From positions 608,001 to 672,000 of the forward strand of contig CAVOVB010000001.1 in NCBI GenBank assembly GCA_963699755.1: 64,000 nucleotides of DNA, in the 5' to 3' direction. The translations under genes were made by a program, and so were the position numbers. The number at the start of each line of letters is the position of its first letter. The first letter of the stretch is position 1. The DNA comes from an uncultured delta proteobacterium. GTDB taxonomy: Bacteria; Myxococcota_A; Polyangia; Polyangiales; Houyiibacteriaceae. A model generated the notes under the pieces. It did no database searches. It saw nothing but the letters and a program-made list of their open reading frames with translations, and was not told the origin of the DNA. This document shows, one piece after another, positions 3,425-47,478 of this stretch.

Positions 3425-4726
3425 ATGACCGACTCCCAGCCAGCCCAGCTCAGCCGATCCCTTGGATTTTGGGCGCTCGTCTTCTACGGCGTAGGGGACA
3501 TCCTAGGCGCCGGGATCTATGCCCTGGTCGGAAAAGTGGCAGGCGTCGCCGGAAGCGCGAGCTGGGCGGCCTTTGGCGTCGCGCTCTTGGTCGCGGGCCT
3601 CACCGCCCTCACCTACGCCGAGCTCGGCGGCCGCTTCCCGCGAAGCGCCGGCGAGTCGTTCTTCACCGAGCAAGCGTTCGGTCGCCCTGGCCTGGCGCTC
3701 CTAGTTGGCTGGATCGTTCTCTGTTCTGGAATCCTCTCGCTGGCCACGGTCTCGGTCGCCTTCGGCGGCTACATGAGCGGGCTGGTTCCCTGGCTTCCAC
3801 CATCGCTCACCGTCGTCGGCATTCTCCTCTTGCTGGCGGCGATCAACTTCCGAGGCATACGAGAGTCGTCGACCACGAACATCGTCGCCACCATGGTCGA
3901 GCTGACGGGCCTGCTGATCGTGATTGTGGTCGGCGCCGTCTTTCTAGGGCGCACGCCCGACGCAAGCATCGCACAAACCATCGAAGCGGGCCGCACCGTC
4001 GGTTGGACGGAGATCGCATCTGGCGCGGCCCTCGGCTTCTTCGCCTTCATCGGCTTCGAAGACATGGTCAACGTCGCCGAAGAGGTGAGGGATCCAGAGC
4101 GCAACATGCCTCGTGCGATCCTGATTGCGCTTTGCGTCACGGGTTTGGTCTATTTACTGGTCGTCGTAGTCGCAACAAGTGTCGTCGCGCCGGCCGTGTT
4201 GGCCGACTCCGAAGCGCCCCTTCTCTCCGTGGTGCGTCGAGCCACCGACGTCGTTCCCGACCGACTGTTCACCTTGATCGCTCTCTTTGCAGTCGCCAAC
4301 ACTGGCTTGCTGAACTTCATCATGGGCTCCCGCCTGATCTACGGCATGTCGCGTCAGGGGCTGCTGCCTGCAGCGCTCGGCAAGGTGCACCTCAAACGCC
4401 GCACGCCGCACCTCGCGATCCTCTCGGTACTGGCAGTCGCGCTCGTCTTGGCGCTCTCGGGCACGCTTACCTATCTGGCAGGCACGACCAGCCTGCTATT
4501 GCTTCTGGTTTTCTTTACCATCAACGTCTCCCTCGTCACGATCAAGCGGCGCGATCGCGAGGCGCTGCGCACATTTTGCGCGCCTCGGCTGGTTCCGATC
4601 GCAGGCGCTCTGAGCTGCCTCGGGTTGATGCCGTTCGTGCCCACAGGATCGCTCCTAACGGCCGGAATCATCCTCGGCTTGGGTGCGAGTCTGGTTGCGG
4701 TACGCGGCGAGCGCCGGTCCGCCTAG
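3425..4726 (+). CDS. APC family amino acid permease
   Basis: ATG at 3425; GDILGAGIY, YAELGGRFPRSAGE, FFAFIGFEDMVNVAEE; about 12 TM segments. Confidence 0.92.
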   Translation: MTDSQPAQLSRSLGFWALVFYGVGDILGAGIYALVGKVAGVAGSASWAAFGVALLVAGLTALTYAELGGRFPRSAGESFFTEQAFGRPGLALLVGWIVLCSGILSLATVSVAFGGYMSGLVPWLPPSLTVVGILLLLAAINFRGIRESSTTNIVATMVELTGLLIVIVVGAVFLGRTPDASIAQTIEAGRTVGWTEIASGAALGFFAFIGFEDMVNVAEEVRDPERNMPRAILIALCVTGLVYLLVVVVATSVVAPAVLADSEAPLLSVVRRATDVVPDRLFTLIALFAVANTGLLNFIMGSRLIYGMSRQGLLPAALGKVHLKRRTPHLAILSVLAVALVLALSGTLTYLAGTTSLLLLLVFFTINVSLVTIKRRDREALRTFCAPRLVPIAGALSCLGLMPFVPTGSLLTAGIILGLGASLVAVRGERRSA

Positions 4727-4998
4727 TCGCCCTTGGGCTTCGGCCTCTCGGGCGGAAGCGAGGGCCGAAACTCAGCTTGTCGCAGGTCGATAATCACGAT
4801 GACCAGGAACAGCGCGAATGATAGCGTGCCAATACCTTGGCCGACCGACATTGCCATCATGACGGGAATCCAACCCTGGTCGAAAAGAGACCAGCTCATC
4901 AGCGCCAGGGCGATCAGGCCGAGCACGCAGGCGTATACCATCAGTCGCGACCGGGAAGCCGTATCGAGGAACTTCTCGATCTTGGCTCGAGCGTTCAT
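4723..4998 (-). CDS. Small two-TM membrane protein, translationally coupled to the NapC-like gene
   Basis: 91 aa, two hydrophobic helices; ATGA overlap with the upstream gene. Confidence 0.7.
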   Translation of the reverse strand: MNARAKIEKFLDTASRSRLMVYACVLGLIALALMSWSLFDQGWIPVMMAMSVGQGIGTLSFALFLVIVIIDLRQAEFRPSLPPERPKPKGD

Positions 4999-5672
4999 CC
5001 GCCCTCCGGCGCTGGGGCCTGGAGCGCCGAATGAGCCGCGGCCTCCGATGGAGTTTCCTCGCCCGATTTGCTAAAAGGATGCGCGTATCCGTGGCAGCCG
5101 GCGCTGGCACAACTCGTTTGGTCGGTGCGCAGGTCGTCGAGAAGTCCGTTATGGTCCGCCACTTCGTTCCATACCTTGCCGGTCGTACTGTGACACTGCA
5201 TGCAGTTGTCGTTCTTGAAGGGTCGCGCGATGTGAATCTTCTCGATGACCTCGTCCCGGTCGTACCACATCCACTCGGAGACGAACTTGTACACGTGGCC
5301 CATGCCCCCGAGCTTGGTCATGGCGTAGCCGAACATCCCATAGTCCTTGTGGCAGACGTAGCAGCTCTCACCCCCGAACTTGTGGGTGCGAGAGTGAATC
5401 GCGGCGAGCGATTCGCTGCTCGGGTCGTTGGCGTCCTCGATCCACATGTCCATCGTGTGGCAGCTTCCGCAGAACCCTTGACGCTCGGTTGCGGCGAAGC
5501 CCTCCAGGTTGCCAATCATGGCAACCATGATGGGCAGCACGCCCACGCCAAGCAGCATCACCGACTTGCCCGCCGCATCGAGAGGCGGCCTCTTGACCAG
5601 GTAATAGAGCATGATGCTGGCCGCAACGACGGCACAAGCGAAAGCGATCCAAGACAGCGGCGATACGTGCAT
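4995..5672 (-). CDS. NapC/NirT family membrane tetraheme cytochrome c (quinol dehydrogenase)
   Basis: N-terminal TMs; FCGSCHTM, CYVCH, CMQCH, CASAGCH. Confidence 0.85.
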   Translation of the reverse strand: MHVSPLSWIAFACAVVAASIMLYYLVKRPPLDAAGKSVMLLGVGVLPIMVAMIGNLEGFAATERQGFCGSCHTMDMWIEDANDPSSESLAAIHSRTHKFGGESCYVCHKDYGMFGYAMTKLGGMGHVYKFVSEWMWYDRDEVIEKIHIARPFKNDNCMQCHSTTGKVWNEVADHNGLLDDLRTDQTSCASAGCHGYAHPFSKSGEETPSEAAAHSALQAPAPEGG

Positions 5673-6995
5673 GATTCAAGGGGCTCGTCACGTCCGTGGC
5701 GGTTCGAGCCCGATGAACATGATCCACGATCGGGTCGCAGTGCAAGTGGGCAGATCAGCCGCTCGAAGCATTGGCGGGTCGGCCTTGCCGCGGCCCTTGC
5801 ACTGACCATCCTAGCACCCTTTTCTCCGGCACTTGCCCAGCCCCACAGCGTGGGCGTCGAGGGCTGGGGGCAGCTCGACCCCAACGTCGGGCTGATCGTC
5901 GTCGAGGCGTCCACGCGCAAGTATCCGTACGTCGACGCCGAAGCGCTGATCTGGGGGGGAGCCGGATCGCCTCAGTACGGCCTGCGTGACAATGAATTCA
6001 CCTTCGAGGCGCTCGTGGCGACGATCAAAGTGAGGGATCCAAAGGGGATCAGCGACGCCAGACTGGGCCGGTTCATCCTTGCAACGGGCGCGGTGCGCGC
6101 CCAGCACGTCGATGGCGGGCATTTGATCCTGCGCGCGCCCTCCAAGACCCACTTCGAATTCTTCGGTGGGGTGCCCGTCGACGGGAACATCGAAGGCCGC
6201 AGCTACGACTGGATAGCAGGGGGCCGGGTCTCCCAGGGGCTCGGCAAAATTGGGGTCCTCGGCGGCTCGTACTACAACCGGTACAACGCCGGTCAGCGCT
6301 CCGATGAAGAGGTCGGGGTCGATTTCTCGCTACGAGCCGCGAGCTGGCTCGACATGGCGGCCAAGTTCTCGTGGGAGATCGTGAACCCGGGCCTTGCCGA
6401 AGTGCTTGCGACCATTTCTTCGCAAACCAACAATCGGAAGTTTCGCGCCGAAGTTTTCGCGAGCAAGCGCAACGTCACCCGCCTCCTGCAACAGACCTCG
6501 CTGTTCACCGTGCTCGGGGACCCGGGAATCTTCGCGACCGGCGCAAATCTCTTCTGGCGTGCTGCGCCACGGCTCGACTTGACAGTGGAAGGGGCCGGGC
6601 GGCAGGCAGAAGACCAATGGGGCTGGAGCGGGTACCTGCGTGGGCTCCTCCGCACCGACGACGAAGGCAAGGGGAGCGTCCTCGGTGAGCTGCGGCGCAT
6701 GCAAGTCGCCACGGCTCGCTGGACGGGGATCCGCCTCGCTTCGGTCATCCAGCTCTTCGAGGACGTCCAGCAGAGCGTGGGCCTGATGCCTGAATTCGAG
6801 GTCATCATTCCCGATGACCGCAACTCCATGACTGGCAGGGCCTGGCCCTGGGGTCGGCTCGCGCTCCGATACCGGCACCAAAGCGGTTGGTCCTTCGCGG
6901 CGGCGGCCGAAGCGAGCGCCAACCAGGTCCAACGACTCGACGTGCGAGGGCTGGCGCGCGTCGCTTTTCAGCGTACTTGGCACGGTCAGCAATGA
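5667..6995 (+). CDS. Putative outer-membrane beta-barrel (porin) of a porin-cytochrome complex; start uncertain
   Basis: Signal peptide ...LAAALALTILAPFSPALA-Q; alternating amphipathic strands rich in G/R/aromatics; ATGA overlap with the next cytochrome; nearest upstream GTG/ATG start found is GTG 5667. Confidence 0.65.
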   Translation: MHDSRGSSRPWRFEPDEHDPRSGRSASGQISRSKHWRVGLAAALALTILAPFSPALAQPHSVGVEGWGQLDPNVGLIVVEASTRKYPYVDAEALIWGGAGSPQYGLRDNEFTFEALVATIKVRDPKGISDARLGRFILATGAVRAQHVDGGHLILRAPSKTHFEFFGGVPVDGNIEGRSYDWIAGGRVSQGLGKIGVLGGSYYNRYNAGQRSDEEVGVDFSLRAASWLDMAAKFSWEIVNPGLAEVLATISSQTNNRKFRAEVFASKRNVTRLLQQTSLFTVLGDPGIFATGANLFWRAAPRLDLTVEGAGRQAEDQWGWSGYLRGLLRTDDEGKGSVLGELRRMQVATARWTGIRLASVIQLFEDVQQSVGLMPEFEVIIPDDRNSMTGRAWPWGRLALRYRHQSGWSFAAAAEASANQVQRLDVRGLARVAFQRTWHGQQ

Positions 6996-8050
6996 AACAG
7001 ATCGTCGCCATCGCAGCCCTGATCCTGCTTGCCGCCTGGTCGGGAGCCTGCGCCAAGATGCTCGGCCTCGATCGAGAAGAACAGGACCACCCTTTTGAGC
7101 ATCGCGCGCACGTCATCGAGGGCATCAATTGCTTGGAATGTCACGGGGGGATTCAAGAGACTGGAGACACCGGACCGTTACATTTTCCGACGACCGCAGA
7201 CTGCGTCGAATGTCACGAGGAACCCCACAATCCAGATACTTGCTCCGACTGCCATGGGCGCGCGAGAAATCGTCAGGCGGCAGAAATGGCTCGCAAGCAT
7301 CTGCGCTTCTCGCATCTGACGCACAGCGAAGAAGGCGCCGGTGACTGCGTGCGATGTCACGTCAACGTGACCAGCAATTCCGACTACGTTCGGGTCAAGC
7401 ATCCGACGTGCTTTAGCTGTCACGCGCACAAAGGCCAATGGGACACACGTGACTGCGGTGGTTGTCACGTCGATCTGCCCGGCGAGATGGCTCCGCCCGA
7501 GAGCCACGTCATCCACGACGGCAACTTCCTGCGCGAGCACGGCGTGCAGGCGAACGCGCAGGGCGACCTCTGCACCGCTTGCCACACCCAGCGCCAATGC
7601 GCCGCCTGCCACGGCGTGACCGTGCCCACGATCCCCTCACGATTTCGTTTTGATGACCCTATGCGGGATTCGATGCACCGCGCGAACTTCATCTCGGTCC
7701 ATGACCAGCAGGCCGTCGCCGACCCCGCGCAGTGCATCGTCTGTCACAGCGAGCTCTTCTGCGTCGACTGCCACACGAGGTTGGGAATCTCAGGCCAGAA
7801 TCCGGTTCGCGGGAATCCGCATCCGCCCGGCTGGTCGGGCCCGCCGGGCTCGTCGAATACCCATGGGCAAGCGGCCCGCCTCGACCCGCTCTCTTGCGCG
7901 AGCTGCCACGGCGGCGCCGGCGAGACCCTCTGCGTGAGCTGCCATCAGGTCGGCGGACCAGGGGGCAATCCACATCCGCCGGGCTTCAATAGCCGCTTGA
8001 GCAAAGCCAACGATCTCCCGTGTCGGCTCTGCCATATCGGAGGACTATGA
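6992..8050 (+). CDS. Multiheme cytochrome c, 13 CxxCH, probable lipoprotein
   Basis: MKQIVAIAALILLAAWSGAC signal; 13 CxxCH counted. Confidence 0.92.
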   Translation: MKQIVAIAALILLAAWSGACAKMLGLDREEQDHPFEHRAHVIEGINCLECHGGIQETGDTGPLHFPTTADCVECHEEPHNPDTCSDCHGRARNRQAAEMARKHLRFSHLTHSEEGAGDCVRCHVNVTSNSDYVRVKHPTCFSCHAHKGQWDTRDCGGCHVDLPGEMAPPESHVIHDGNFLREHGVQANAQGDLCTACHTQRQCAACHGVTVPTIPSRFRFDDPMRDSMHRANFISVHDQQAVADPAQCIVCHSELFCVDCHTRLGISGQNPVRGNPHPPGWSGPPGSSNTHGQAARLDPLSCASCHGGAGETLCVSCHQVGGPGGNPHPPGFNSRLSKANDLPCRLCHIGGL

Positions 8051-9561
8051 AGCGAGCCGCCATCCTCGTCGGGATCTTCGCCGCGCTCGGAGTCGTGGCC
8101 GGCTTTCTCGTTGCGAGGCTCAGCACCGACGTCTTCCCGACGATGAAAGAACAACGCAATGCCGGGCCCACCCGGACGGTGCCGAAAAACTGGCCCCAAG
8201 TTCGCCTGTCTCCGGGGCACTCTCAGCACATCATCAACGAACGGGTCAAATGCGACGAATGTCATGACCCCGCCGACGAGACCTTTCGGGCTCCCGACAC
8301 CGGGGTATGCACCCAATGCCACGAAGAGCAGGCGTCGTTGGCGCACGTCAACCTCGATGGCACGCCGATGGACTGTTACACCTGCCACATCTTCGGCGCG
8401 GAACCCGAAGTGTTCGGGCGATGGCACTGCACGCGCTGCCACGGGCCGTTCCAAAGCGATGGCATGGAAGGCCTCGCCATGCACAACACCGTGCCATGCG
8501 AGACCTGCCACAACCCGCATAAGGCCATCGACGAGACGATTCGTGAGTGCGGCGAGTGCCATGAGAAGATGAATCTGCAGCATGGCCAAACGAAACTCAG
8601 CGGAACATGCGCCGATTGCCATGGAGGGCATCAACTCGCTACCGATGCAGCGTCGTGTTTGAGCTGCCACGCGACGAAGTCGCCGATCGTTCCTGCTTCT
8701 GCGACCTTTGGAGGGGGACATGATTCATGCGCAGACTGCCACAAGGCTCATGCGTTTTCGGCAGAGAGCGCACTGCGGTGCAACTCCTGCCACGCGGGCG
8801 TGCGCGTGCTTGCGCAGAGCTCCGCGCCGGAGCACCGCGATTGCACGAGCTGTCATTCACCCCACGACGTGCGCGCAGCGGGAGATCAGTCCTGCAAGGG
8901 GTGCCATCGAGATGTGGCTTCGACCCATGCCGCACAGAGCACCAAGGACTGCGTCGGATGCCACGAGCCGCATCCGCAGCGTGTCGCGCAAATCGCGCTG
9001 CAGTGCTCGAGGTGCCACGAGGAGGCTAGCTCGGAGCGAGCGTTTCACGCCGGAAACATTCCCTGCACCGGTTGCCACGAGCCCCATCGATTCGACCTCA
9101 GCGGCCTCAGCGATCGCGCCCTGTGCAGGCGGTGCCACGTCGCTCAGGTTCGTCTAACCCGTCGAAATTTGGGGCATTCCAGCTGCTCGGGCTGCCATCA
9201 GGGAACGGTGCACGAGCCCGCTGGAGTTCTGACCTGCGGCAGCTGTCACGAAGAGAAGCTCGCGCGAAGCCCGGCTGGCCACCGTGAGTGCGCGTCGTGC
9301 CACGAGCCGCACGGCGGCACGGTCTCGGCACAAACCAGTTGCACGGGATGCCACAAGGTTGCGCAGCTACCGGGGCTGCACCGCCTGGCCGACGTGCCGA
9401 TCGGTGAGGGCCACACTAAGTGCGCGGCTTGTCACGACATTCACGAATTGAAGGTTCGCGCCGGCCGCGCAGACTGCATGACCTGCCATGAGGACGTCGC
9501 CGATCACCAACCCGATGCCAAGGTCTGCACGGGATGCCATACATTCATCCGCGCCCGTTAG
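8047..9561 (+). CDS. Multiheme cytochrome c, 23 CxxCH, N-terminal membrane anchor/signal
   Basis: ATG 8047 overlaps the upstream TGA; 23 CxxCH in 504 aa. Confidence 0.93.
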   Translation: MKRAAILVGIFAALGVVAGFLVARLSTDVFPTMKEQRNAGPTRTVPKNWPQVRLSPGHSQHIINERVKCDECHDPADETFRAPDTGVCTQCHEEQASLAHVNLDGTPMDCYTCHIFGAEPEVFGRWHCTRCHGPFQSDGMEGLAMHNTVPCETCHNPHKAIDETIRECGECHEKMNLQHGQTKLSGTCADCHGGHQLATDAASCLSCHATKSPIVPASATFGGGHDSCADCHKAHAFSAESALRCNSCHAGVRVLAQSSAPEHRDCTSCHSPHDVRAAGDQSCKGCHRDVASTHAAQSTKDCVGCHEPHPQRVAQIALQCSRCHEEASSERAFHAGNIPCTGCHEPHRFDLSGLSDRALCRRCHVAQVRLTRRNLGHSSCSGCHQGTVHEPAGVLTCGSCHEEKLARSPAGHRECASCHEPHGGTVSAQTSCTGCHKVAQLPGLHRLADVPIGEGHTKCAACHDIHELKVRAGRADCMTCHEDVADHQPDAKVCTGCHTFIRAR

Positions 9562-10803
9562 TCAAAACGGAGGCAGCGTTCGAATCTTGATCGCGACGCC
9601 GAGCGTGAGAATGAGAAGTAGCAGCGTGCTGATTGCAAGCCCCCGGCGTCGGCCATCGAACGCTCGCAGCTGCGCGTATCCCACCTCCAATGCGGCCGCT
9701 TGGTTCTGGGAGATTTCGGAGACTTTTTCCTCCATCACGGGCTTCGAGAACGCATGAATCAAGGTGCGGGCCTGAAGGAGGCCCTGCCGCGCTGCCTGCT
9801 CGTAATCCTCTGCTTCGGTGACGTCCATGCCCTTCGTCTCGGCTTCGGCGAGCAAGTCATCGATCTCGTCGAAAGATCGTCGAACTGAACCGAGCGTATC
9901 GGCGTAGTAAAGTGCGAGATCCGATCCTTCATCACCGGTTTCGTGGCACTTGCGGCACGCGCCATCAGGCTCGTCGGCGAGCCAGTCGTCGGACACATGC
10001 GTGATGAGGTGCTTTCCGTGACATGCCACGCAGTCGGCAAGCGATTTCTCCTTGAAGTCCGGGGCCAAGGGACTCCCTAGAAACAGCTCGGCGTTGTAGC
10101 TGTGGCACGTGCCGCAGATGTTGCTGATCGCATCGATCGACGGAGGAGCCGCGCCGTGGTTGCCGTGGCAGTCATTGCAGGCCGGTGCCCCGCGCACGTC
10201 GTGCTTCTCGAGGAGCGCCTTTCCATGGACGCTCTGGGTGTACTCTTCGTATTGATCGGTTGGAATGTCGAAATCGCTCATGTACTCCGCGTCAGCGTGG
10301 CAATGCGCGCATGTCGCCGGAACGTTCTCGGCATAGACCGGCGACTTGGCATCGTTGACTTCCCGCACTCCATGGGCGTGATGGCAGCTCACGCACTGGG
10401 CCACTCGAGTTTCTCCCTTGGCGAGAAGCTTTCCATGCACGCTTGTCCTGTACTTCTCGAGCTGATCGATCGGCAAGAGCGGCTTGCGCGCCTTCATGTA
10501 CCCGATATCAGCGTGACAGCCGCCGCACGAGAGGACGATTTCTTGCGCAGAAAGTGTGCCACGATAGTTGGTGCCGCGACGTTTGGCGAGATGACTGTCC
10601 CCCTGCGTCGGATCGCCGCCGTGACATGCATCGCATCCAATTCCGGCATGCGCATGGACATCGTCCTGCCATAGCTCAGCCACCCCGTCATCGGTGGTGA
10701 GATGGCATTCCAGGCACTTGCCTCCAGGAAGCTCCTCGGCGCTTGCGCTCGAAGCAAGTGCGACAGACAACACGATCAGAGCGGAGACAAAAACGTTCTT
10801 CAT
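9562..10803 (-). CDS. Nonaheme cytochrome c with C-terminal coiled coil and TM anchor (cytochrome c subunit of the bc-type complex)
   Basis: Signal MKNVFVSALIVLSVALASSASA; 9 CxxCH; repeated YxxSVHGK; C-terminal hydrophobic helix. Confidence 0.9.
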   Translation of the reverse strand: MKNVFVSALIVLSVALASSASAEELPGGKCLECHLTTDDGVAELWQDDVHAHAGIGCDACHGGDPTQGDSHLAKRRGTNYRGTLSAQEIVLSCGGCHADIGYMKARKPLLPIDQLEKYRTSVHGKLLAKGETRVAQCVSCHHAHGVREVNDAKSPVYAENVPATCAHCHADAEYMSDFDIPTDQYEEYTQSVHGKALLEKHDVRGAPACNDCHGNHGAAPPSIDAISNICGTCHSYNAELFLGSPLAPDFKEKSLADCVACHGKHLITHVSDDWLADEPDGACRKCHETGDEGSDLALYYADTLGSVRRSFDEIDDLLAEAETKGMDVTEAEDYEQAARQGLLQARTLIHAFSKPVMEEKVSEISQNQAAALEVGYAQLRAFDGRRRGLAISTLLLLILTLGVAIKIRTLPPF

Positions 10804-11885
10804 GCGAAGTGCCCCCGATAGGTCATGATCGAGAGGAACAACAGTGCGGCGATGCCCGCAATCATGACGATGGTGGTGACCCGGCGACTCCGCCCTGTGT
10901 CGATCCACGGAACCAAGCACCAGAGGAGCCCGCCAAACGAAATCATCAGCAGCCCGAGCTTTTCTCCTTCAATCGGCCCGACATGGGCGGGCATGTATTT
11001 GAGAAACTCGAAGGTGGCGAGGAAGTACCACTCGGGCTTGATGCCCGCAGGAGCGGGAGCAAAGGGGTCGGCCTCGACGCCGAGCTCGGCGGGAAAGAAC
11101 ACGGCCAAAGCCGCCAACACGTTCAGCGTGATCAACCAGAACAGCAGCTCGCGCATGAAGAAGTGCGGGAAAAACGGCATCGTCTTCCGGCGGTCTGGCT
11201 GCGTTTCCCATACCTGCGGCTCGTGGATCCCCTGAAGCTGGATGAAGAAGAGATGGCCCGCGACGAAAAGGGTCAGCAACGCCGGAAAGAGGGCTACGTG
11301 AAGTGCGAAGAAACGGGGCAGCGTCGAACCCGTGACGTCTTCGCTACCACGCAGCACGTACATGATGGGCTTACCGATCAACGGGACGACCCCGACGATG
11401 TCGGTGCCCACTTTCGTTGCAAAAAAGGCGAGCTCGTTCCATGGCAAAAGATAGCCGCTGAACCCGAAGCCGAACAGAATCACGAGGAGCACGATCCCGG
11501 AGAGCCAGGTGAGCTCACGCGGCTTTCGATACGCGCGCATGAAGAACACGCTGAACATGTGGATGCACGCAGAGAGGATCATCAGGTTCGCCGACCAGGC
11601 ATGCACCGATCGAATGAGCCAGCCAAACGGAACCTTGGCGGAAATGAATCGCACGCTCTCGAAAGCCGTGTCGGCGCTTCCCTTGTAGTAGAACATCAAC
11701 ATGATTCCCGTTCCCACCTGAATGAGGAACAGAAAGAGCGTGATGCCACCGAAGTAGTACCAAAACGCGCCCCTGCCGACCGGCACGGTCTTGTGCTTGG
11801 CCCACTCCTGAAACTGCGCGATGGGGTAGCGGTCTTTTGCCCAGCCGAAGAAGGAACGCTTAGGATTTCTGGGTGACATAGACAT
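10800..11885 (-). CDS. Cytochrome b subunit of a Rieske/cytochrome b complex
   Basis: GWLIRSVHAWSAN, HMFSVF, GYLLPW, RFFALHV, PEWY motif. Confidence 0.93.
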   Translation of the reverse strand: MSMSPRNPKRSFFGWAKDRYPIAQFQEWAKHKTVPVGRGAFWYYFGGITLFLFLIQVGTGIMLMFYYKGSADTAFESVRFISAKVPFGWLIRSVHAWSANLMILSACIHMFSVFFMRAYRKPRELTWLSGIVLLVILFGFGFSGYLLPWNELAFFATKVGTDIVGVVPLIGKPIMYVLRGSEDVTGSTLPRFFALHVALFPALLTLFVAGHLFFIQLQGIHEPQVWETQPDRRKTMPFFPHFFMRELLFWLITLNVLAALAVFFPAELGVEADPFAPAPAGIKPEWYFLATFEFLKYMPAHVGPIEGEKLGLLMISFGGLLWCLVPWIDTGRSRRVTTIVMIAGIAALLFLSIMTYRGHFA

Positions 11886-12291
11886 CGTCCCCCTGCGTGT
11901 GCACTTCGAGGGCGTCCAGCGGCCGCGGCGGCGGGCCCGACACGTTGGTTCCGTTCAAGTCATAGACCCCGTTGTGACAGGCACACCAGATGTCCTCTTT
12001 CTCGGAGCGGTACTGCACCGTGCAATCGAGGTGGGTGCACTGGGCGAGATATGCAGCGAAGTTACCGTCGGGTCGGCGCACCAGAAGGGCCGGCTTTCGG
12101 CCAAACTTGAACACCTTCCCCGAGTTCGGCTCCATTTCCGTGAGCGTCGTTGCCTTCACCGAAGAAACCGCCGCTTCTTGCTCAGGGGGCGGGCTCAAGA
12201 AACGAAGCACCGGATAGATGACCGAACCAAGCCAGGCGAAGGTGCTTCCCCCGAGAAACCAATTGAGAATCGACCGCCGGTCAAACTTCAT
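11860..12291 (-). CDS. Rieske [2Fe-2S] subunit
   Basis: Tat-like DRRSIL, CTHLDC, CACHNGVYD, GPPPRPL. Confidence 0.93.
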   Translation of the reverse strand: MKFDRRSILNWFLGGSTFAWLGSVIYPVLRFLSPPPEQEAAVSSVKATTLTEMEPNSGKVFKFGRKPALLVRRPDGNFAAYLAQCTHLDCTVQYRSEKEDIWCACHNGVYDLNGTNVSGPPPRPLDALEVHTQGDDVYVTQKS

Positions 12292-12353
12292 CAGGCTCGC
12301 CTCTCCGCCAACTGCGGCCGAGCCTATCGGATTTCGCGACCGAATCGCAACGA

Positions 12354-13415
12354 TTATCGAAACGCGTCGACGCGTCCGTTGATATGCGGAGCTTCGATGG
12401 TCAGCCGAGTACCGGCGGCGTTGATGCCCACGTGGCAGTTGTTGCATGCGATCTTCGCGTGGCCCACCGGCGGATTCTGGTGGCAGGAGTTGCACTCCAG
12501 TGCGAGCCCCTCTTCATCCCAAGCGACGACAGGCGTGGTGCCACCGCGCACATGGCAGCTGGTGGCGCAGACACGGGTCTCGGGATCGTAGCTCGCGTCG
12601 GGTCCCCAGGCGGGCTGGAAGACCACGTCGATGTCACCGTTGGCGTGGCGTCCGCCGAGCATCGAGTAGTCCTCCCCGAAGTGGCACGCCTGGCAGTCGA
12701 GGCCGCGCGGGTTGTTCGCTGAGGACTGCACGTGAGGCGCATGAGCGTAGCCCGCGGGTGGCCCAGGAAAGTAGCACTGGTCTCGCGGCGGATAGGGACG
12801 CAGGCCATCTCCGTGGCAGGTTCCGCACGCCATGACACCACCCGGTACGTCGTGACAATCGGTGCAATCGGTGGCGCCAGGCGGGTAGATGGTCACCTCC
12901 TCGACCGGCGCCGGTGACCCCGCATGACAAAGACCACAAGCATCAGTCCGCTCGGAGTCGATGATGGGCTGCCAGTCGGTCTCTCCCAGGTAGCTGCCGT
13001 GCCAATCGGCGGCACGCGGATCGGTCCACTGGCCAGGGTGGGTGCTTCTCGCATCGGGAAAAGCGCCGTCGCTGACCCAGGTCCTCAGGGTAAACGCATC
13101 GTCGGCATCGAGCAGGTCCGAGTGACTCGGCTCCTGAAGCACGGCGAGGATCGGCGCCATCTGATCAGGCGGCGAGGTCGCCGGCTGCCCTTCGGGGTCG
13201 GGGATACATCGGATGGTCGTGAAATAGTCCTCGACCCGATAGTCAGCTTCCGCGCCTGGGCCGCTGTGGCACCCCAAGCAGCGCTCTTGGAGAATCGGAT
13301 TTACATCCGCAAACACGACCGGCGGTTGGTCGCGATCGCGCGCCTCGTTGCAGCCAAGAACCGCAACGTTGAACCACACGAGCCCGGCAAGCCAAACGCT
13401 CGTCCCGCCCCTCAT
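12354..13415 (-). CDS. Multiheme cytochrome c lipoprotein (7 CxxCH + CX3CH)
   Basis: Lipobox VLGC; ATGA overlap with the upstream gene; CATSCH; ends HINGRVD. Confidence 0.88.
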   Translation of the reverse strand: MRGGTSVWLAGLVWFNVAVLGCNEARDRDQPPVVFADVNPILQERCLGCHSGPGAEADYRVEDYFTTIRCIPDPEGQPATSPPDQMAPILAVLQEPSHSDLLDADDAFTLRTWVSDGAFPDARSTHPGQWTDPRAADWHGSYLGETDWQPIIDSERTDACGLCHAGSPAPVEEVTIYPPGATDCTDCHDVPGGVMACGTCHGDGLRPYPPRDQCYFPGPPAGYAHAPHVQSSANNPRGLDCQACHFGEDYSMLGGRHANGDIDVVFQPAWGPDASYDPETRVCATSCHVRGGTTPVVAWDEEGLALECNSCHQNPPVGHAKIACNNCHVGINAAGTRLTIEAPHINGRVDAFR

Positions 13416-15499
13416 GGCGCGGGGGGGTTGGGCAGTAGGTTGGCATGGCAGGTGCCGCACGCGTTGGTGAAAGCGACAGGCTGCTCAAGCGGCTCACCAA
13501 CCTCCCGCCAACGGGTCATCGTCAACCGATGGCTCGCGATGTCGTTCCAGAAGTACTGGACGGGCAGCGATACGCTCGAGCCTGGATCGAAAAGCGCGGG
13601 CACTCCTGCGCCGGAGCGGGCGGTCGGCACCAGATGGCAGTCGGCGCAGAGGAGCCCGAATCCGGTGTGGACCGTATTGCCGGTCGCGAATTGGACGTGA
13701 GCATCCAAGTTGCCCGATTCCGCCAAATCGCTGTGGCAGGTGGTGCACAGAGCGTTGGGATTGCCCGAGGTGTCCGTGGAAGCGATGTCGGCATCGTTGG
13801 CGTGCGGGCTGTGGCAGTTCGTGCAAGATACGAGCCTGGATCCGTTTCGGTAGTGCTTCGATTCTAGGTGTCCGGAGTACTGCTGATAGTCCGCCCGCGG
13901 GTCGCCTGAGGCATAGAAGTCATCCGGCGCGCCGCTGACGCGCGACGTATGAAGGAGGGCGAAATCGCGACGGCGGATACCGGCCGGCGGCATCTCGTCA
14001 TCGGCCGAGAGCGGCAACCCGGTCATGCCCCCACCGATGCCGAGGGGTCGCGAGTGGCAGGTTCCGCAAAGCGCCGCCCGGCGACCCGGAGTCAAGAGCC
14101 CGGGGGACACCATGAACCTGCCATTCGGGCTTGGCGTCAGATGGTCCGAACCCGGGCCGTGACACGACTCGCAGCCGACGTTGATGAGCTCCAGCCTACC
14201 GTCGCCGTCATAATCAAACGCACCAGCCGAATCGACGACGGCGCTCGCAGACCAACCGTCCGCCTCGCTACCGCTCAGATCGTAGCCCGTGAAGTGACAG
14301 CCCGCACAGTTGTTGTCGAAAGACTCGCCTGAGGGAGGTGAGAAGTCCGGATCACGAAGTAGGTCGGAGCTGAAGTCGTACCAAAGGTCGGATCGGTAGT
14401 CGCGCCAGGGCCAGTCATTCGAGCTGCCGTTGCCCGGAAGGCTCCCGTTGTCGAAGTCGCCCTCGTAGTTGTATTGCATGGGGAGCAGGAAGTAACTGAG
14501 GCTGCCGTCCCTGTTGCTCCGGCGCGCTAGATACTGTTGCGTGCCCAAGGCTCCTCCGTAGGTGAGGACGACATCGTAGCTATGCGTGGGCTGCGCGTTG
14601 ACGAGATTCTCTACTTCAATGAAGTAGGCGCCGATCGCGCCGACCGGCTTGTTTGAGTCCCGCCGCAAGTCGATTCGAAATCTCGTGCTTGAGCCCGGAT
14701 CCTGAATCTGCACCTTGCAGCTCGACGGATCGGCATGCGTCGAGGCCGACGCATCGCAATCGTAGTAGTAGAGGGACGTGCCCGCCTCGAACGCCGCCAA
14801 TCCGGCATAGAAACCAGGCCAAGGCTCGACGTCTTGCAAAATCGAGGGCGCACCTGGTACCTGAAGGCCTACGTTGTGCGCGGTTCGGGAGGTGGTGTTG
14901 AGGGCATGACAGCCCAAACAGGTCGATGAGCCGACGTAGGTTGCTCGCTCGCTCGGCTGAGGGCTCACGCGGATGTCCAGCTGCATGCCGATCAGTGACG
15001 CAGTATCGATGGCGACGCTGCTGTTGTCACCGCCTGGCAAGTGCACGCTGTCATCCTCCGCGGGTGTCCAAACGACGAAGTAATTTCCCTCGGGAAGCGT
15101 TTCGAACCGGTATTCGCCGGATTCGTCGACCGCGGCCTGCTCGTAGTCTGCGCCGGCGTCGAGGAGGTCTTCGATCGGTTCGTCGACTTCGAGCATCGCA
15201 GTCGCCTCCGGCGACAAGGAGATATCGATCCGCGTCTCCGACAGCGCCTCGACGTCGCTTGCAGGCACGAGGTAGACAGTGCCGCCGGGCACCGGGAGCA
15301 TGCTCGGCTCCATGACCCGGCCCACCAAGCCCTCCAGCTCGGGATCGATCCCAGCGTCCGGCGTCGCTCCTGGAGGCCCTTGTGGCCCCTCCGGGCCCTC
15401 TGGCCCTTGCTCGCCCGTGTCACCCTTGCAGGCGCCGATCATGAGACATGTGCAGACGAGAAGCGGGAGCCACGAGAACCGTGAGATGGAAAGCATCAT
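13412..15499 (-). CDS. Octaheme cytochrome c lipoprotein with collagen-like G-X-Y stretch and beta-sandwich N-domain
   Basis: IGAC lipobox; GEQGPEGPEGPQGPPG; YVGSSTCLGCH, VGCESCHGPGS; 8 CxxCH. Confidence 0.88.
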   Translation of the reverse strand: MMLSISRFSWLPLLVCTCLMIGACKGDTGEQGPEGPEGPQGPPGATPDAGIDPELEGLVGRVMEPSMLPVPGGTVYLVPASDVEALSETRIDISLSPEATAMLEVDEPIEDLLDAGADYEQAAVDESGEYRFETLPEGNYFVVWTPAEDDSVHLPGGDNSSVAIDTASLIGMQLDIRVSPQPSERATYVGSSTCLGCHALNTTSRTAHNVGLQVPGAPSILQDVEPWPGFYAGLAAFEAGTSLYYYDCDASASTHADPSSCKVQIQDPGSSTRFRIDLRRDSNKPVGAIGAYFIEVENLVNAQPTHSYDVVLTYGGALGTQQYLARRSNRDGSLSYFLLPMQYNYEGDFDNGSLPGNGSSNDWPWRDYRSDLWYDFSSDLLRDPDFSPPSGESFDNNCAGCHFTGYDLSGSEADGWSASAVVDSAGAFDYDGDGRLELINVGCESCHGPGSDHLTPSPNGRFMVSPGLLTPGRRAALCGTCHSRPLGIGGGMTGLPLSADDEMPPAGIRRRDFALLHTSRVSGAPDDFYASGDPRADYQQYSGHLESKHYRNGSRLVSCTNCHSPHANDADIASTDTSGNPNALCTTCHSDLAESGNLDAHVQFATGNTVHTGFGLLCADCHLVPTARSGAGVPALFDPGSSVSLPVQYFWNDIASHRLTMTRWREVGEPLEQPVAFTNACGTCHANLLPNPPAP

Positions 15500-15590
15500 C
15501 CGGATAATATGCAACCGGGGCAGGCCTTCAAGCGAAGACATGCCCCGGACCGCTGTTTCTGGGCTTCGATGGCCCTATGCGTCCCGCTGG

Positions 15591-18134
15591 CTAAGGCCGA
15601 GTGACGCTCGGTGTCCCACCCATTTTGACGATGGAATCGACGAGGATCTGCTTGATGTAGGCCCCGTTGTGTATGTACGCGCCTGGGTCCTTCGCGGCCA
15701 CCTGGTAGTTGTAGGCCGCGGTCAGCATGTCGAAGTCGAAGTCGAGGTATCGGTTGGGATAAATCGCTGGCACGCCACCCTTGAACCAGTATGGGTAGGC
15801 GACCGGGTCGTACTGCACCGGCGAGTCCTTGGGCAGCCCCGTAGAGGGATTGCCCGTTGTGGCGTACGCCTGGATCGCTGCCAGCAGCTCGGCTTTCAGG
15901 GTCTCAATGTCTTCGAAGTTCGTGTTCAGCGAGCCGCTCATCGTTGGGAAGCTGCTGCCAATGTGGCAGCCGTTGCAGTCCGCGACCTTGGGCAAGAAGG
16001 TATGCTTCTTGTCCTGGGCGTCGTCGGCGTTCATGTGACAGCCGATACAATCGATGAGACCCGCAGCAATCGGCAGCTGCGTGTGTGTAAGGAAGCGGTT
16101 CTTACCGAGGTAGCTCTCTCCCTCATACTGGTATCCACCCCGCACATCGTTGCCGAAGAAGGTCGCCCCGACGGCATAGTAGTGGATATTGATGAAGCTG
16201 TAGGAATCGTAATCCTCGTTCTCACCGTTTGGCACCGCTGCATTCACACTATCGGTCGAGGCATTGCCCTGGTGACAGGTGATGCAGATGTTGCTGGCGT
16301 TGTTGAGCGTAGCTGTCTCGCCAGACGGAAACGCGACCGGTTCGAGCCGTGGGTTGGTGCCGACGGCGGCATAGCGCGTCTCCGCGTTGGCGAAGAGGTT
16401 CGGATCGTTGTGACAGGATGTGCAACCCACCGCAGTCAAGGGCAGCTGGGGAGTCAGTGACCCACCCATCGCGTAGATGCCGAAGCCGTTGGCGTTGTGG
16501 CACTTCGTGCACGTGGCCTCCACCTCGAGCTCCGGATCCCAGTGACGGAAGACCTCGGAGCCGGAGTCGCCATGGCCGCTGATCTGCCATTGCTCGGTCT
16601 TGGAGGCCGATCCAATGGCCGAGCCGTCGAGCGTCAGGTTGCCTCGACCGATCACCGGGACGGCGGAGGTTCCACCGAGGTCCACGATCGAATCGTACAG
16701 GATTTGCTGGAGGTAGGTCCCGTTGTGGATGAACCCATTCGGGTCTTCCTGGGTGACCTGGTAGTTGTACGCAGCAGAAAGAAGGGCTGCATCGAAGTCT
16801 TCGTACGCGTTGGAGCGGCCACAAGCCATCCCGTTGTCGTAGCAGAATCGGCCGTCATAGATGATGGGCTCTCCGATGACGGTGTCTGCGTAGTCTTGGA
16901 TCTCCGCATAGAGCTCTGCCTGCAGTGCCTGAATGTTGTCGTAGTTCCGCTTGGGCGAGCCGTCGAGCGTCTGGAAGCTCGTGCCGCCGTGGCAGTCGAT
17001 GCAGGTGTCGACAGCCGGGATCCAGGTGTGATTCTCGCCGTTCTCGGCGTTGGTCATGTGACAGCCCTCGCAGGTCGACAGATCATCGGGGTGCGATGGG
17101 AAGGTGTTGCGGGTGACGTACTCGTTGCCCTCGTACTGATACCCTGGATTGGCTTCACTTCCGAACAAGCTTGCAGCCGCGCCAAAGTGGTGGATGCTGA
17201 CGGCCTCGTACGGCCCTGGGCCCGCGTCGATCTCCTGCTGCACTGACCTGCCGGACTCACGCCCCTGGTGACAGACCAGGCACATGTTGCTGCTGCCAAA
17301 GAGTGAGAGGTGCGCATCTTCGGGGAGCTCGTCCACGGGAAACTGCACGGGCTCGAGCGCAGCGAAGGACGGGTTATAGTAGCTCGAGGGCGAGCCGGTG
17401 TGGCAAGCCACACACTCGAGACCAAGTGACGGCGCGTTGGCTTGAGTCACCAGACCGTCAGGCGCATAGTCGAGGAAACCCGCCGCGGAGTGGCACTGGG
17501 CGCAACCGGTGGAAACGGGGCCCGGATCAAAGCGACGCCACGTTCCTGCTGTCAAGTCGCCGTGTCCGCTCGTTGCCCACTGCTCGTAGATCTCGGACGC
17601 GGGTCCACTGGCTAGGGTGTAGCCTTCGGACTCCTCGCCTGTGTCTGCGGGAGAGGGAGCACCGCCGGCGCCACCTGCACCGCCCGCGCCGGAGGCGATC
17701 GCTCTAAACTTCAGCACTGTGGTCTCGGTGAGCGTGATCGGCCCGGCGTACGCTGGGCTCGGGTTGTCAGGGTCTGCAGGGTCGACGTCCGTGAGATCGG
17801 TGGTGAAGTAAATGGTCGCGCCAGCGCTCTCGGGTCCGCTGGCGATCAGCCTGACCGTGATGTTTGGATCGAACGTCCTCCCGGAGGGATCCGCATTGAC
17901 GCAGAGGTCTTCCACGCACGCGGGGATGCTGCCGCCCGTGCCGCCCGTGCCGCCTTCGCCGCCGCCGCCGCTACCCGCAGAGCCACCGCTACCCGCGGAG
18001 CCACCGCTTCCTGCGGAGCCGCCGCTTCCCGCAGCGCCGCCGCCGTCGTCGGAGCTACAACCCATCACTGCGACCGTGAACGACAACATCGCGAACAACA
18101 CGCAACGCGAAACCAAAGACTTATTCATTTGCAT
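15591..18134 (-). CDS. Decaheme outer-surface lipoprotein cytochrome, tandem 5-heme modules (OmcB/polyheme-like)
   Basis: VMGC lipobox, (AGSGGS)n linker, Fn3/CHB_HEX_C-like IYFTTD...YAGPITL; two repeats each ending AAYNYQ...DPxx(F/Y)IHNGxY..QIL.DSI. Confidence 0.88.
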   Translation of the reverse strand: MQMNKSLVSRCVLFAMLSFTVAVMGCSSDDGGGAAGSGGSAGSGGSAGSGGSAGSGGGGEGGTGGTGGSIPACVEDLCVNADPSGRTFDPNITVRLIASGPESAGATIYFTTDLTDVDPADPDNPSPAYAGPITLTETTVLKFRAIASGAGGAGGAGGAPSPADTGEESEGYTLASGPASEIYEQWATSGHGDLTAGTWRRFDPGPVSTGCAQCHSAAGFLDYAPDGLVTQANAPSLGLECVACHTGSPSSYYNPSFAALEPVQFPVDELPEDAHLSLFGSSNMCLVCHQGRESGRSVQQEIDAGPGPYEAVSIHHFGAAASLFGSEANPGYQYEGNEYVTRNTFPSHPDDLSTCEGCHMTNAENGENHTWIPAVDTCIDCHGGTSFQTLDGSPKRNYDNIQALQAELYAEIQDYADTVIGEPIIYDGRFCYDNGMACGRSNAYEDFDAALLSAAYNYQVTQEDPNGFIHNGTYLQQILYDSIVDLGGTSAVPVIGRGNLTLDGSAIGSASKTEQWQISGHGDSGSEVFRHWDPELEVEATCTKCHNANGFGIYAMGGSLTPQLPLTAVGCTSCHNDPNLFANAETRYAAVGTNPRLEPVAFPSGETATLNNASNICITCHQGNASTDSVNAAVPNGENEDYDSYSFINIHYYAVGATFFGNDVRGGYQYEGESYLGKNRFLTHTQLPIAAGLIDCIGCHMNADDAQDKKHTFLPKVADCNGCHIGSSFPTMSGSLNTNFEDIETLKAELLAAIQAYATTGNPSTGLPKDSPVQYDPVAYPYWFKGGVPAIYPNRYLDFDFDMLTAAYNYQVAAKDPGAYIHNGAYIKQILVDSIVKMGGTPSVTRP

Positions 18135-18254
18135 GGCCCTCTCACCAATCTCCACCCGATGCTGGACGTGCTGATTCTGTACAATTCGCACGAGAAATCA
18201 AAGGATTGTCACTGAAAAACGTTTTCAACAACCGATACCGATCGCTGCCTTCAC

Positions 18255-18277
18255 GTGCGCGCAAAATCTGCGCGCAC
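18255..18277. promoter_or_regulatory. Perfect 9-bp inverted repeat in the leader of the cytochrome operon (operator or RNA hairpin)
   Basis: gtgcgcgca-aaatc-tgcgcgcac. Confidence 0.5.
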
Positions 18278-18350
18278 AAACTTATTATGCGCGTCGTACT
18301 TGCGGCGTCGGCAGACATCATCTGGGAATCCTCATCTGGTGCGCTTGCTA

Positions 18351-18366
18351 TGCAAGCGCGGTACCA
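18351..18366 (-). promoter_or_regulatory. Putative sigma54 -24/-12 promoter for the multiheme operon
   Basis: Minus strand TGGTACCGCGCTTGCA (GG-N10-GC). Confidence 0.6.
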
Positions 18367-42489: not shown

Positions 42490-42759
42490 TCAGTCGTCCG
42501 CGCTGCGTGTGCGTTTCCGAGGTGAGCAGCTCGCTGTAAGGCGTTGCCCGTCGAGGTCATAGCCGTCGAGCTCCTCCGCGGCACGGAGGGCATCATCCAG
42601 ATCCTCGTAGTCGACAATTGCGCTGCTTCCAGCTGTGCTCTGGTCTTGGTCGAGCAGCATTTCGGCGTCAGAGACCTCGCCGAAGGGTTCGCAAAGATCC
42701 AAGAGGTCATCCTCGTCAAAATGACTTGGAAGCCCCTCGATGTAGAGACGCGCCGTCAT
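42490..42759 (-). CDS. RRM-fold RNA-binding protein (degenerate, acidic)
   Basis: LYIEGLP (RNP2), PFGEV, A.EELDGYDLDGQRL. Confidence 0.8.
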   Translation of the reverse strand: MTARLYIEGLPSHFDEDDLLDLCEPFGEVSDAEMLLDQDQSTAGSSAIVDYEDLDDALRAAEELDGYDLDGQRLTASCSPRKRTRSADD

Positions 42760-42796
42760 GTTCGCCTATCAGTAGAACGTACAGCGAGCACAGAAG

Positions 42797-42812
42797 TGCA
42801 CGATCGGTGCCA
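42797..42812 (-). promoter_or_regulatory. Putative sigma54 promoter for the RRM-SET genes
   Basis: TGGCACCGATCGTGCA (GG-N10-GC). Confidence 0.65.
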
Positions 42813-42979
42813 AGCCGGACCATGGGCGTGACGCGAGGAAAAGCGTGGCCCGCCGAACTACGAGTGCAAGTCTTGCCCTAGTCCATCGTGCAAGAACTGC
42901 ACTTACCGCTCTTCCTCGCGTTCCTGGGCCCCTGCGCAAGCTCGCGGGCCGACCGGCGTGGCAAGCGAAGAGGCCCCAA

Positions 42980-43014
42980 AGAAAGAAGCCCCGCTTCTTT
43001 CGAAACGGGGCTTC
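42980..43014 (-). terminator. Rho-independent terminator after 5S rRNA
   Basis: gaagccccg...cggggcttc followed by tttcttt on the minus strand. Confidence 0.8.
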
Positions 43015-43018
43015 ATAA

Positions 43019-43135
<117 letters not shown>

Positions 43136-43270
43136 TCCGTAGAAAGTTTCTCTGTGCCGCTTCTGTGAAGCGGAATCAGAAGCAAGTTCGAGAGTCCGTG
43201 TTGATGGATGTTCTCGAGCTCTTCCTTCCAACCCTGATCTCAAGCCACGCACGAAACGTGTCTTAGAAAG

Positions 43271-46275
<3,005 letters not shown>

Positions 46276-46323
46276 TTTTCCTAAGACGCATTTCGTCTTC
46301 GAGCTCGATAAATGAGCGATCCG

Positions 46324-46393
46324 CCGCTTACCTCCTCGTCGCTCCGCTGCGAGGTACAAGAGTACCTCTCACTTCGCTCCTGCGGGGGCGCTG
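46324..46393 (+). repeat. REP-like ~70 bp element, copy 1
   Basis: gcttacctcctcgtcgctccgctgcGAGGTACaagaGTACCTCtcacttcgctcctgcggggg. Confidence 0.7.
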
Positions 46394-46717
46394 GCGCCTC
46401 GCACATTTCTCTTCACTCGAAGGTGTTGGCAGCGCCGACCGCGAATAGTCGGAATACCAACGCGTGGTCTGTCACGACGGAAAGTCTTGATGACAGACCA
46501 CCTCGTAACTCGAGACCAGGGTTCGAAAGAAGAGCCTGGTCACAGCTACGGCTAGAAAGAGAAAATTTCTACAGATATTCAGTTGTCAAAGATGCGAGAA
46601 ATCAAGCTAGTCAACTCGATTGCTCGGGTCGATGGCGCGCCTTGTACGCTGCCGACCGAAGAAATCAAGCGTGGGTCCTCACGGAGGTCTTGGCAAGTCC
46701 CGAAGGCCCTCCCCATC

Positions 46718-46793
46718 TGGTGGAGCTGAGGGGGCTCGAACCCCTGACCCCCGGCTTGCAAAGCCGGTGCTCTCCCAACTGAGCTACAACCCC
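46718..46793 (-). tRNA. tRNA-Ala (TGC)
   Basis: GGGGTTGTAGCTCAGTTGGGAGAGC...TTTGCAA...GTTCGAG...CCACCA cloverleaf. Confidence 0.97.
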
Positions 46794-46822
46794 TTGGCTT
46801 TCGCTCCATATCCGGCACCTGG

Positions 46823-46892
46823 CCGGCTTATTGCCATCGTTGCCTCGCTGCGAGGTACCTATGTACCTCTCACTTCGCTCCTCAGGCAAACG
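46823..46892 (+). repeat. REP-like element, copy 2
   Basis: cggcttatt...cgctgcGAGGTACctatGTACCTCtcacttcgctcct. Confidence 0.65.
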
Positions 46893-46971
46893 TTCGCCCA
46901 TGCACCGAATCTGAAGCGAAATCCGATTCTTAGAAGTGCATGTCCAGCGCAGGATTTATGCGTCAGGTCCA

Positions 46972-47040
46972 AGCGCCCCCGCAGACCCGGAGTGAGAGCT
47001 ACGAAGGTAGCTCGCGGCGGAGGGTCGAGGAGGTAAGCCG
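46972..47040 (-). repeat. REP-like element, copy 3 (inverted)
   Basis: Reverse complement: cggcttacctcctcgaccctccgccgcGAGCTACcttcGTAGCTCtcactccgggtctgcggggg. Confidence 0.7.
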
Positions 47041-47062
47041 GAGCTGGCGCAAAAAGACAAGC

Positions 47063-47139
<77 letters not shown>

Positions 47140-47154
47140 GTGTATTCTCGCAAA

Positions 47155-47165
47155 CTGTCAAAGAG
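47155..47165 (-). promoter_or_regulatory. boxA-like antitermination site (second copy at about 46583-46592)
   Basis: ctctttgacag; second copy atctttgacaa before the 23S. Confidence 0.6.
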
Positions 47166-47276
47166 AGTCAGAACTGGTTTCCGCGAACCGTTTTCGAAGC
47201 TCGTCGAGGCCTAAACCTCGATAACTACTTCGTTTTGTTGGTTCCGTCCCCCGTCCTCAGGCTCAAACGGACGGCT

Positions 47277-47305
47277 TCTTTAGCGGCCTTCCCCAAACTG
47301 GTCAA
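47277..47305 (-). promoter_or_regulatory. Putative sigma70 promoter of the tRNA-23S-5S unit
   Basis: TTGACC-17 nt-TAAAGA, T-rich upstream segment. Confidence 0.65.
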
Positions 47306-47478
47306 GGACTTTCAAACAACAAAGTGCGAGAAGCCTGGAAGACTGGTTTTCGTTGCGTTTCGCGCGCGGGCTGTCGCCAACTTGATCCCGGGAATCACCG
47401 AGTTTCCGCACAGCCCGTCCGCATTCGTGGAGTCACTGCCAAGCGTCTAAAATCATGGAGGAAAGGTCTGCTGAGGAT

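Follow-up and report, generated by a model that had tools for sequence, protein, structure and literature searches.

How would an uncultured bacterium make use of a single gene cluster that encodes dozens of hemes, and where would the electrons carried by those hemes go? This question is raised by a 64,000-nucleotide stretch of DNA (the window; positions 608,001 to 672,000 of contig CAVOVB010000001.1, assembly GCA_963699755.1) from a member of the Polyangiales, phylum Myxococcota. Positions 4723-18366 of the window carry genes for seven multiheme c-type cytochromes, a beta-barrel-like protein, a Rieske protein, and a cytochrome b. An earlier interpretation made without database searches (the sequence-only reading) had proposed that these genes encode a complete path from quinol to the cell surface. 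Our follow-up analysis indicates that the locus is a real, conserved, and modular porin-cytochrome system. It probably carries electrons outward, from menaquinol to acceptors outside the cell.

The heme counts that had been given for the seven cytochromes proved exact. In gene order from low to high coordinates within the window, the proteins carry 3, 13, 23, 9, 7, 8, and 10 CxxCH motifs with spacing variants in two of them (3 plus a CX4CH in the first tally and 7 plus a CX3CH in the fifth), for a total of 73 CxxCH. A six-frame count across 4723-18366 likewise yields 73, versus a mean of 0.73 (maximum 2) over 60 base shuffles, and the 45.6 kb downstream of the cluster contain 2. The genes had also been described as mostly joined by overlapping stop and start codons. 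This holds for 6 of the 10 junctions, where genes on the same strand overlap (by 4 nt in five cases and by 20 nt in one), whereas the remainder comprise one head-to-head overlap of 6 nt, one tail-to-tail junction without a gap, and two gaps (62 and 91 nt). The cluster is not one operon but three transcription units on both strands. Unit 1 (minus strand) encodes a 91-amino-acid (aa) membrane protein and NapC; unit 2 (plus strand) encodes the barrel and the 13-heme and 23-heme proteins; and unit 3 (minus strand), which converges on the 23-heme gene, encodes the 10-heme protein, two 8-heme proteins, the Rieske protein, cytochrome b, and a 9-heme protein.

The invariant core of the locus is formed by two genes of unit 2, those for the barrel (5667..6995, plus strand) and for a 352-aa lipoprotein with 13 CxxCH motifs (6992..8050, plus strand). 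The sequence-only reading had named the barrel as a point on which its proposal could fail. An AlphaFold (AF2) model built from a 108-sequence alignment instead predicts, after a long signal peptide, an outer-membrane barrel of 22 strands without a plug (pLDDT 91, pTM 0.82). The fold is generic, because searches with the model retrieve ushers, TonB-dependent transporters, porins, and MtrB, all at 5-13% identity, and MtrB (Z 16.1) appears there in the company of other generic barrels. When the 108 barrel members were scanned with Pfam and NCBIfam, there was no convincing match (best E value 0.001), none passed an NCBIfam cutoff, and none matched the MtrB family. For the barrel, the ESM Atlas returned unnamed Myxococcota clusters only, and PDB searches with the single sequences of the barrel, 10-heme, and NapC proteins yielded no meaningful relative.

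In the 13-heme lipoprotein, the lipid-anchor Cys is kept in at least 90% of 130 sequences and many distal His residues are invariant. Its AlphaFold model, which was built without hemes, is of moderate quality (pLDDT 77, pTM 0.52), and a Foldseek search with this model gave nothing at an E value of 0.001 or better, the best match being ActA at 0.065. In all 36 distant Myxococcota loci that we selected manually to cover a spread of families on long contigs (16 of them from the phylum draw described below), a homologue with 12-14 hemes lies directly downstream of the barrel gene. The 13-heme lipoprotein is the likely wire inside the predicted barrel. In five loci (L125, L126, L127, L129, and L131), a divergent barrel/13-heme pair stands without any further multiheme gene within 20 kb, a minimal form. 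In another (L115:4650-13247), such a pair lies near apparent NiFe-hydrogenase and rhodanese-like lipoprotein genes, as judged from translations only.

The sole usual start codon of the barrel gene is at 5667, where it overlaps the napC start head to head, and divergent promoters therefore have no intergenic DNA. In 33 of 35 distinct sequences, over seven different lengths, this start shares the reading frame of the mature barrel and no stop codon intervenes; one more locus, in which the motif is absent, was left out of this comparison. Within the barrel signal region (5667-5840) there is also a conserved promoter-like motif directed at napC. A 654-aa open reading frame (ORF) from 5031 was discarded; its front part is antisense to napC.

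The barrel is present in 45 of the 54 other genomes of the genus and, at a threshold of E 1e-12, in 74 of 301 genomes drawn from the phylum, 13 of which are genus members. The 41 loci found with the 13-heme protein derive from metagenome-assembled genomes, whose named taxa are mostly Polyangiales, Myxococcales, Sandaracinaceae, and delta proteobacterium. The family of the present genome is presumably Houyiibacteriaceae, previously named SG8-38. Gene content around the core varies among the 36 distant loci: NapC/NrfH genes occur near the barrel in 10, Rieske and cytochrome b genes in 2, and both in none, while homologues of the 23-heme protein are found in 14 and those of the 8-heme protein at 12354..13415 in 18.

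On the inner-membrane side, the napC gene (4995..5672, minus strand) encodes a NapC/NrfH-type tetraheme quinol dehydrogenase with two N-terminal membrane helices, 3 CxxCH motifs, and a CX4CH. It scores above the PF03264 cutoff, and its profile matches NrfH (2j7a, E 4e-5). The membrane anchor, four hemes, CxxCHxM first motif, and quinol-site Lys of the NapC/NrfH group are all present. Positions corresponding to NrfH Met49 and Lys82 are invariant, and Asp89 is replaced by an invariant His; these residues have a role at the NrfH quinol site. The neighboring gene (4723..4998, minus strand) encodes the 91-aa companion, which has two predicted membrane helices, no His, and no known family; of the 10 distant loci with a NapC/NrfH gene, 8 also encode this companion. 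Within the genus, the NrfH-type dehydrogenase belongs to the core. The 23-heme cytochrome (8047..9561, plus strand) has one heme per 22 aa and an N-terminal hydrophobic helix, and is likely to be a periplasmic wire anchored in the inner membrane.

A second candidate entry point for electrons is encoded in unit 3 by genes for an unsplit cytochrome b (10800..11879), a Rieske [2Fe-2S] protein (11860..12291), and a 9-heme cytochrome c with a signal peptide and a C-terminal membrane anchor (9562..10803), all on the minus strand. The Rieske and cytochrome b assignments, like that of the NapC/NirT gene, had been proposed from the sequence and pass Pfam cutoffs. Cytochrome b has eight predicted helices, four heme-ligand His residues (93/107 and 194/209), and a PEWY motif, and it is the sole match of its family in the genome. 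The Rieske protein carries the Rieske boxes and a twin-arginine signal, but the Ser that high-potential Rieske proteins have in box II is missing, which presumably marks a lower-potential center.

These three genes form an optional cassette, in which the 9-heme gene moves together with those for cytochrome b and the Rieske protein. Close cytochrome b orthologues (79-94% identity) were found in 16 of the 54 other genus genomes (15 full and 1 fragment), a lower bound given that the contigs are broken. Of the 15 full orthologues, 11 share the contig of the barrel at a distance of no more than about 6 kb, three sit on separate short contigs, and one lies elsewhere beside a 23-heme gene fragment. 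None of the 9 barrel-negative genus genomes, which are kin rather than independent cases, has one. Among loci that span the junction of the 23-heme and 8-heme genes, the cassette is there in 9, relocated in 1, and absent in 9. Its presence changes 4 times on a tree of 23 rows, whose deepest genus row carries it when the tree is rooted at the midpoint, and this pattern fits one gain followed by three losses. The claim of two inner-membrane entry points holds for this genome; its second entry, however, is an optional one, and multiple entries in one cluster have precedents (see below). In other families, two loci (L109:6336-11545 and L105:5388-10469) hold a different Rieske/cytochrome b pair that is co-directional with the barrel and 13-heme genes, without a NapC gene; one pair of this type is fused to a monoheme cytochrome c.

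The remaining genes of unit 3, also on the minus strand, encode three heme lipoproteins. One (12354..13415) has 7 CxxCH motifs and a CX3CH, a conserved lipobox, and a score above the cutoff for the CxxxxCH/CxxCH domain family TIGR01904. Another (13412..15499; 695 aa) has eight hemes and a collagen-like linker. The largest (15591..18134; 847 aa), a candidate surface reductase, has a Gly/Ser linker and contains a tandem pair of pentaheme modules, with 39% identity between the halves. It matches NrfA weakly, and its module may resemble the C-terminal part of Geobacter OmcB. For the 695-aa protein, the ESM Atlas gave only generic multiheme clusters, and its profile is distantly related to PDB 6I5B (E 4e-6), the surface reductase OcwA (PMC6703420).

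The most telling evidence on function comes from related loci, in which we scanned 16 large cytochromes with no match, or barely one, to the 10-heme protein of the window. The OmcA/MtrC cutoff is passed by 11 of them, two of which are from the same genus; three fall below it and two have no match. One of the 11 matches the structures of MtrF, OmcA, UndA, and MtrC. These genes replace or join the 10-heme gene, and so, by sequence family, surface metal reductases of the OmcA/MtrC type appear to fill the slot that other lipoproteins hold in the window. The matches to this family support a role in extracellular electron transfer. Together with the barrel model and the strict adjacency of the barrel and 13-heme genes, they argue for the putative porin-cytochrome conduit that the sequence-only reading had suggested.

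That reading had also stated that the layout matches neither MtrCAB nor OmabcB. Gene content bears this out, but the core pair does agree with porin-cytochrome complexes (Pcc) as they have been described. According to Shi et al. 2014 (PMC4245776), Pcc porins have 18-22 predicted strands and adjacent partners with 5-14 hemes; the 22-strand barrel and the 13-heme gene that overlaps its stop codon are within both ranges, the partner here being a lipoprotein. The Anaeromyxobacter proteins Adeh_3391/Adeh_3392 (Pcc group IV) are from the same phylum, and the cytochrome partners, with 338-344 aa and 12-14 hemes, are similar in size to the one in the window. Higher abundance of Adeh_3392 on Mn(IV) is cited in the same paper. 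Among the 120 matches listed, most of them unnamed, there is no protein named Anaeromyxobacter. Group IV clusters are reported there to lack an outer-membrane cytochrome, whereas the window links the core to three heme lipoproteins that would be placed at the surface, and to the 23-heme protein and quinol enzymes. By analogy, the barrel/13-heme pair fits a Pcc-like mode of action.

Other known systems share parts of this design. Like MtrCAB with CymA, the locus combines a NapC/NrfH-family quinol dehydrogenase with a barrel and its inserted wire (both predicted here), and relatives carry OmcA/MtrC-family genes in the lipoprotein slot. In contrast, MtrB has 28 predicted strands (PMC4245776), the MtrA/DmsE partner is a decaheme protein whereas the 13-heme lipoprotein has no TIGR03508 match, and the window has no MtrC member. 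The Geobacter extHIJKLMNOPQS cluster (Jahan et al. 2018, PMC5877670) likewise unites a porin, multiheme cytochromes, a Rieske protein, and cytochrome b. However, cytochrome b in the window is one chain that falls below the ExtP cutoff (201 versus 290 bits), the ExtP, ExtQ, and ExtM models all stay below cutoff, the barrel has no NCBIfam match, and the locus has no rhodanese gene. PCC3 systems, as described by He et al. 2017 (PMC5566968), have porins of up to 42 strands, an inner-membrane protein of five helices that carries two HX13H motifs, and a periplasmic cytochrome with a median of 21 hemes, for which an envelope-spanning path was proposed. The window resembles them in pairing a porin with a very heme-rich periplasmic cytochrome, but it has neither the 42-strand porin nor the five-helix protein; its only membrane protein without a family is the 91-aa companion. 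More than one quinol-linked entry is also known from Rhodoferax ferrireducens, whose mtr cluster has two cymA genes and mtrH (PMC6295460), and from Geobacter, where ImcH, CbcL, and CbcBA are tuned to acceptor potential (PMC13591261). The second entry of the window differs in being a Rieske/cytochrome b complex that is gained and lost as a cassette.

Few subscription papers were within reach of our literature search, which returned no description of this locus. The main text of a 2026 Myxococcota survey (10.64898/2026.07.10.737566) does not contain the term "electron transfer", and its supplements may list such genes; the accessible text of PMC12545173 has no occurrence of "Myxococc".

The genome (contamination 9%) reads, from its gene content, as that of a facultative respirer with menaquinone. 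It encodes MenB, three cytochrome c assembly genes, alternative complex III (ACIII) directly upstream of an aa3-type oxidase operon (L082:4586-16515), and five COX1-family genes, two of them beside NorC-like genes. NirS and a futalosine marker were looked for in the genome and not found. In two estuary metatranscriptome runs the signal has small shares (0.06-0.07). Contigs of these runs cover 28 and 26 of 30 bins, flanking genes included, and come from relatives mostly below 95% identity; this coverage is uninformative about transcription, gene ranking, and habitat.

From these features we infer the complex, the localization of its parts, the direction of flow, and the acceptors. Menaquinol would be oxidized by the NrfH-type tetraheme protein, the periplasm would be spanned by the membrane-anchored 23-heme protein, and the outer membrane would be crossed by the 13-heme lipoprotein held in the predicted barrel. 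At the far end, the 8-, 8-, and 10-heme lipoproteins may be exchangeable terminal reductases whose acceptors would be Fe(III)/Mn(IV) oxides, humics, or other cells. The Rieske/cytochrome b/9-heme cassette could provide a second, proton-pumping Q-cycle entry for higher-potential acceptors, a role assigned by analogy because Geobacter has potential-dependent entries (PMC13591261). Conservation of the NrfH quinol-site positions, the presence of MenB, and an inner-membrane module that varies between loci all favor this scheme.

Several observations weigh against it. The 10-heme protein of the window is below the OmcA/MtrC cutoff (57 versus 209 bits), and 24 of the 36 distant loci have neither inner-membrane module in the examined stretch. 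In Myxococcus xanthus lipoproteins, Ala at +7 marks export to the matrix and Lys at +2 is linked to inner-membrane retention (PMC3222651). By this rule, which comes from a different class, the +7 Ala is absent from all four lipoproteins, and the 695-aa lipoprotein has Lys at +2 in 9 of 14 orthologues. The similar Geobacter ExtHIJKLMNOPQS is dispensable for Fe(III) citrate reduction and affects selenite and tellurite (PMC5877670). Finally, the group has no cultured member, and the organism is no obligate metal reducer, because ACIII, O2 reductases, and NO reductases are encoded in the genome as well.

The same anatomy would serve electrons moving in either direction. Fe(II) minerals, reduced humics, or conductive partners could feed the quinone pool or the terminal oxidases, possibly with the Rieske/cytochrome b complex run in reverse. 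Suitable sinks exist (the aa3-type oxidase, two further heme-copper oxidases, and NO reductases), and CymA-type proteins operate in both directions (PMC6295460). We nevertheless consider inward or two-way flow unlikely, in view of swappable partners that resemble OmcA/MtrC and OcwA, which are known terminal reductases, and of a Rieske box and MenB that point to a low-potential quinone pool and would favor outward flow. Somewhat less probable still is a role in the envelope, like that of ExtHIJKLMNOPQS, in which a soluble compound is reduced or charge is stored during redox swings rather than minerals being respired. The similar gene content of that cluster, the weak NrfA- and OcwA-family similarity of the 10- and 8-heme proteins, and the storage capacity of about 75 hemes suit such a role, but the barrel passes no NCBIfam cutoff in any of its 108 members, the rhodanese gene is missing, and strict barrel/13-heme pairing with MtrC-family partners is better suited to a wire than to a solute channel.

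It is very improbable that the three units are neighbors without a common pathway and that the barrel has a non-redox function such as export or anchoring. The genes do lie on both strands, and ushers and TonB-dependent transporters are the best fold matches of the barrel. However, these matches are generic at such low identity, and the units have remained linked despite rearrangements in different families, being co-directional in L097-L102. An outward conduit from menaquinol remains the reading that we prefer.

The surroundings of the cluster had been taken to link it to aerobic lipid chemistry through P450 and sterol desaturase genes. We reject this link because the two P450 genes lie 36-40 kb from the cluster; a fragment of the fatty-acid-hydroxylase family is 4.3 kb away. 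Window positions 42500-47400 combine lower GC content (53-57%) and a strong skew with the absence of long ORFs; the stretch may be an RNA operon or an insertion. Elsewhere in the genome, a second multiheme cluster (L080:3034-12722 and L081:4341-11517; 10, 20, 8, and 29 hemes) is accompanied by an FAD/4Fe-4S oxidoreductase and by genes without an assignment, and has a fragmented second copy on C1, possibly from strain contamination. A stand-alone 8-heme protein with TPR repeats is encoded at L083:5062-7443.

The locus offers a natural experiment in modularity, with a fixed barrel/13-heme core and swappable quinol enzymes and surface cytochromes, and it allows a test of whether extracellular respiration can conserve extra energy through a Rieske/cytochrome b complex. 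If the system conducts, then most species of an uncultured Polyangiales genus and many other Myxococcota carry a conduit that annotation misses because the barrel passes no Pfam or NCBIfam cutoff, and candidate Fe, Mn, or humic respirers reach beyond Anaeromyxobacter. A bolder and more tentative possibility, which we regard as doubtful at present, is that the barrel/13-heme pair represents a family that is undescribed, extends across the phylum Myxococcota, and stands apart from the published Pcc groups, that it forms a menaquinol-to-surface wire in this genus, and that the sole Rieske/cytochrome b complex pumps protons during mineral respiration. Were the separate family and mineral respiration to hold true, a lineage treated as aerobic heterotrophs would consist of overlooked facultative metal or humic respirers.

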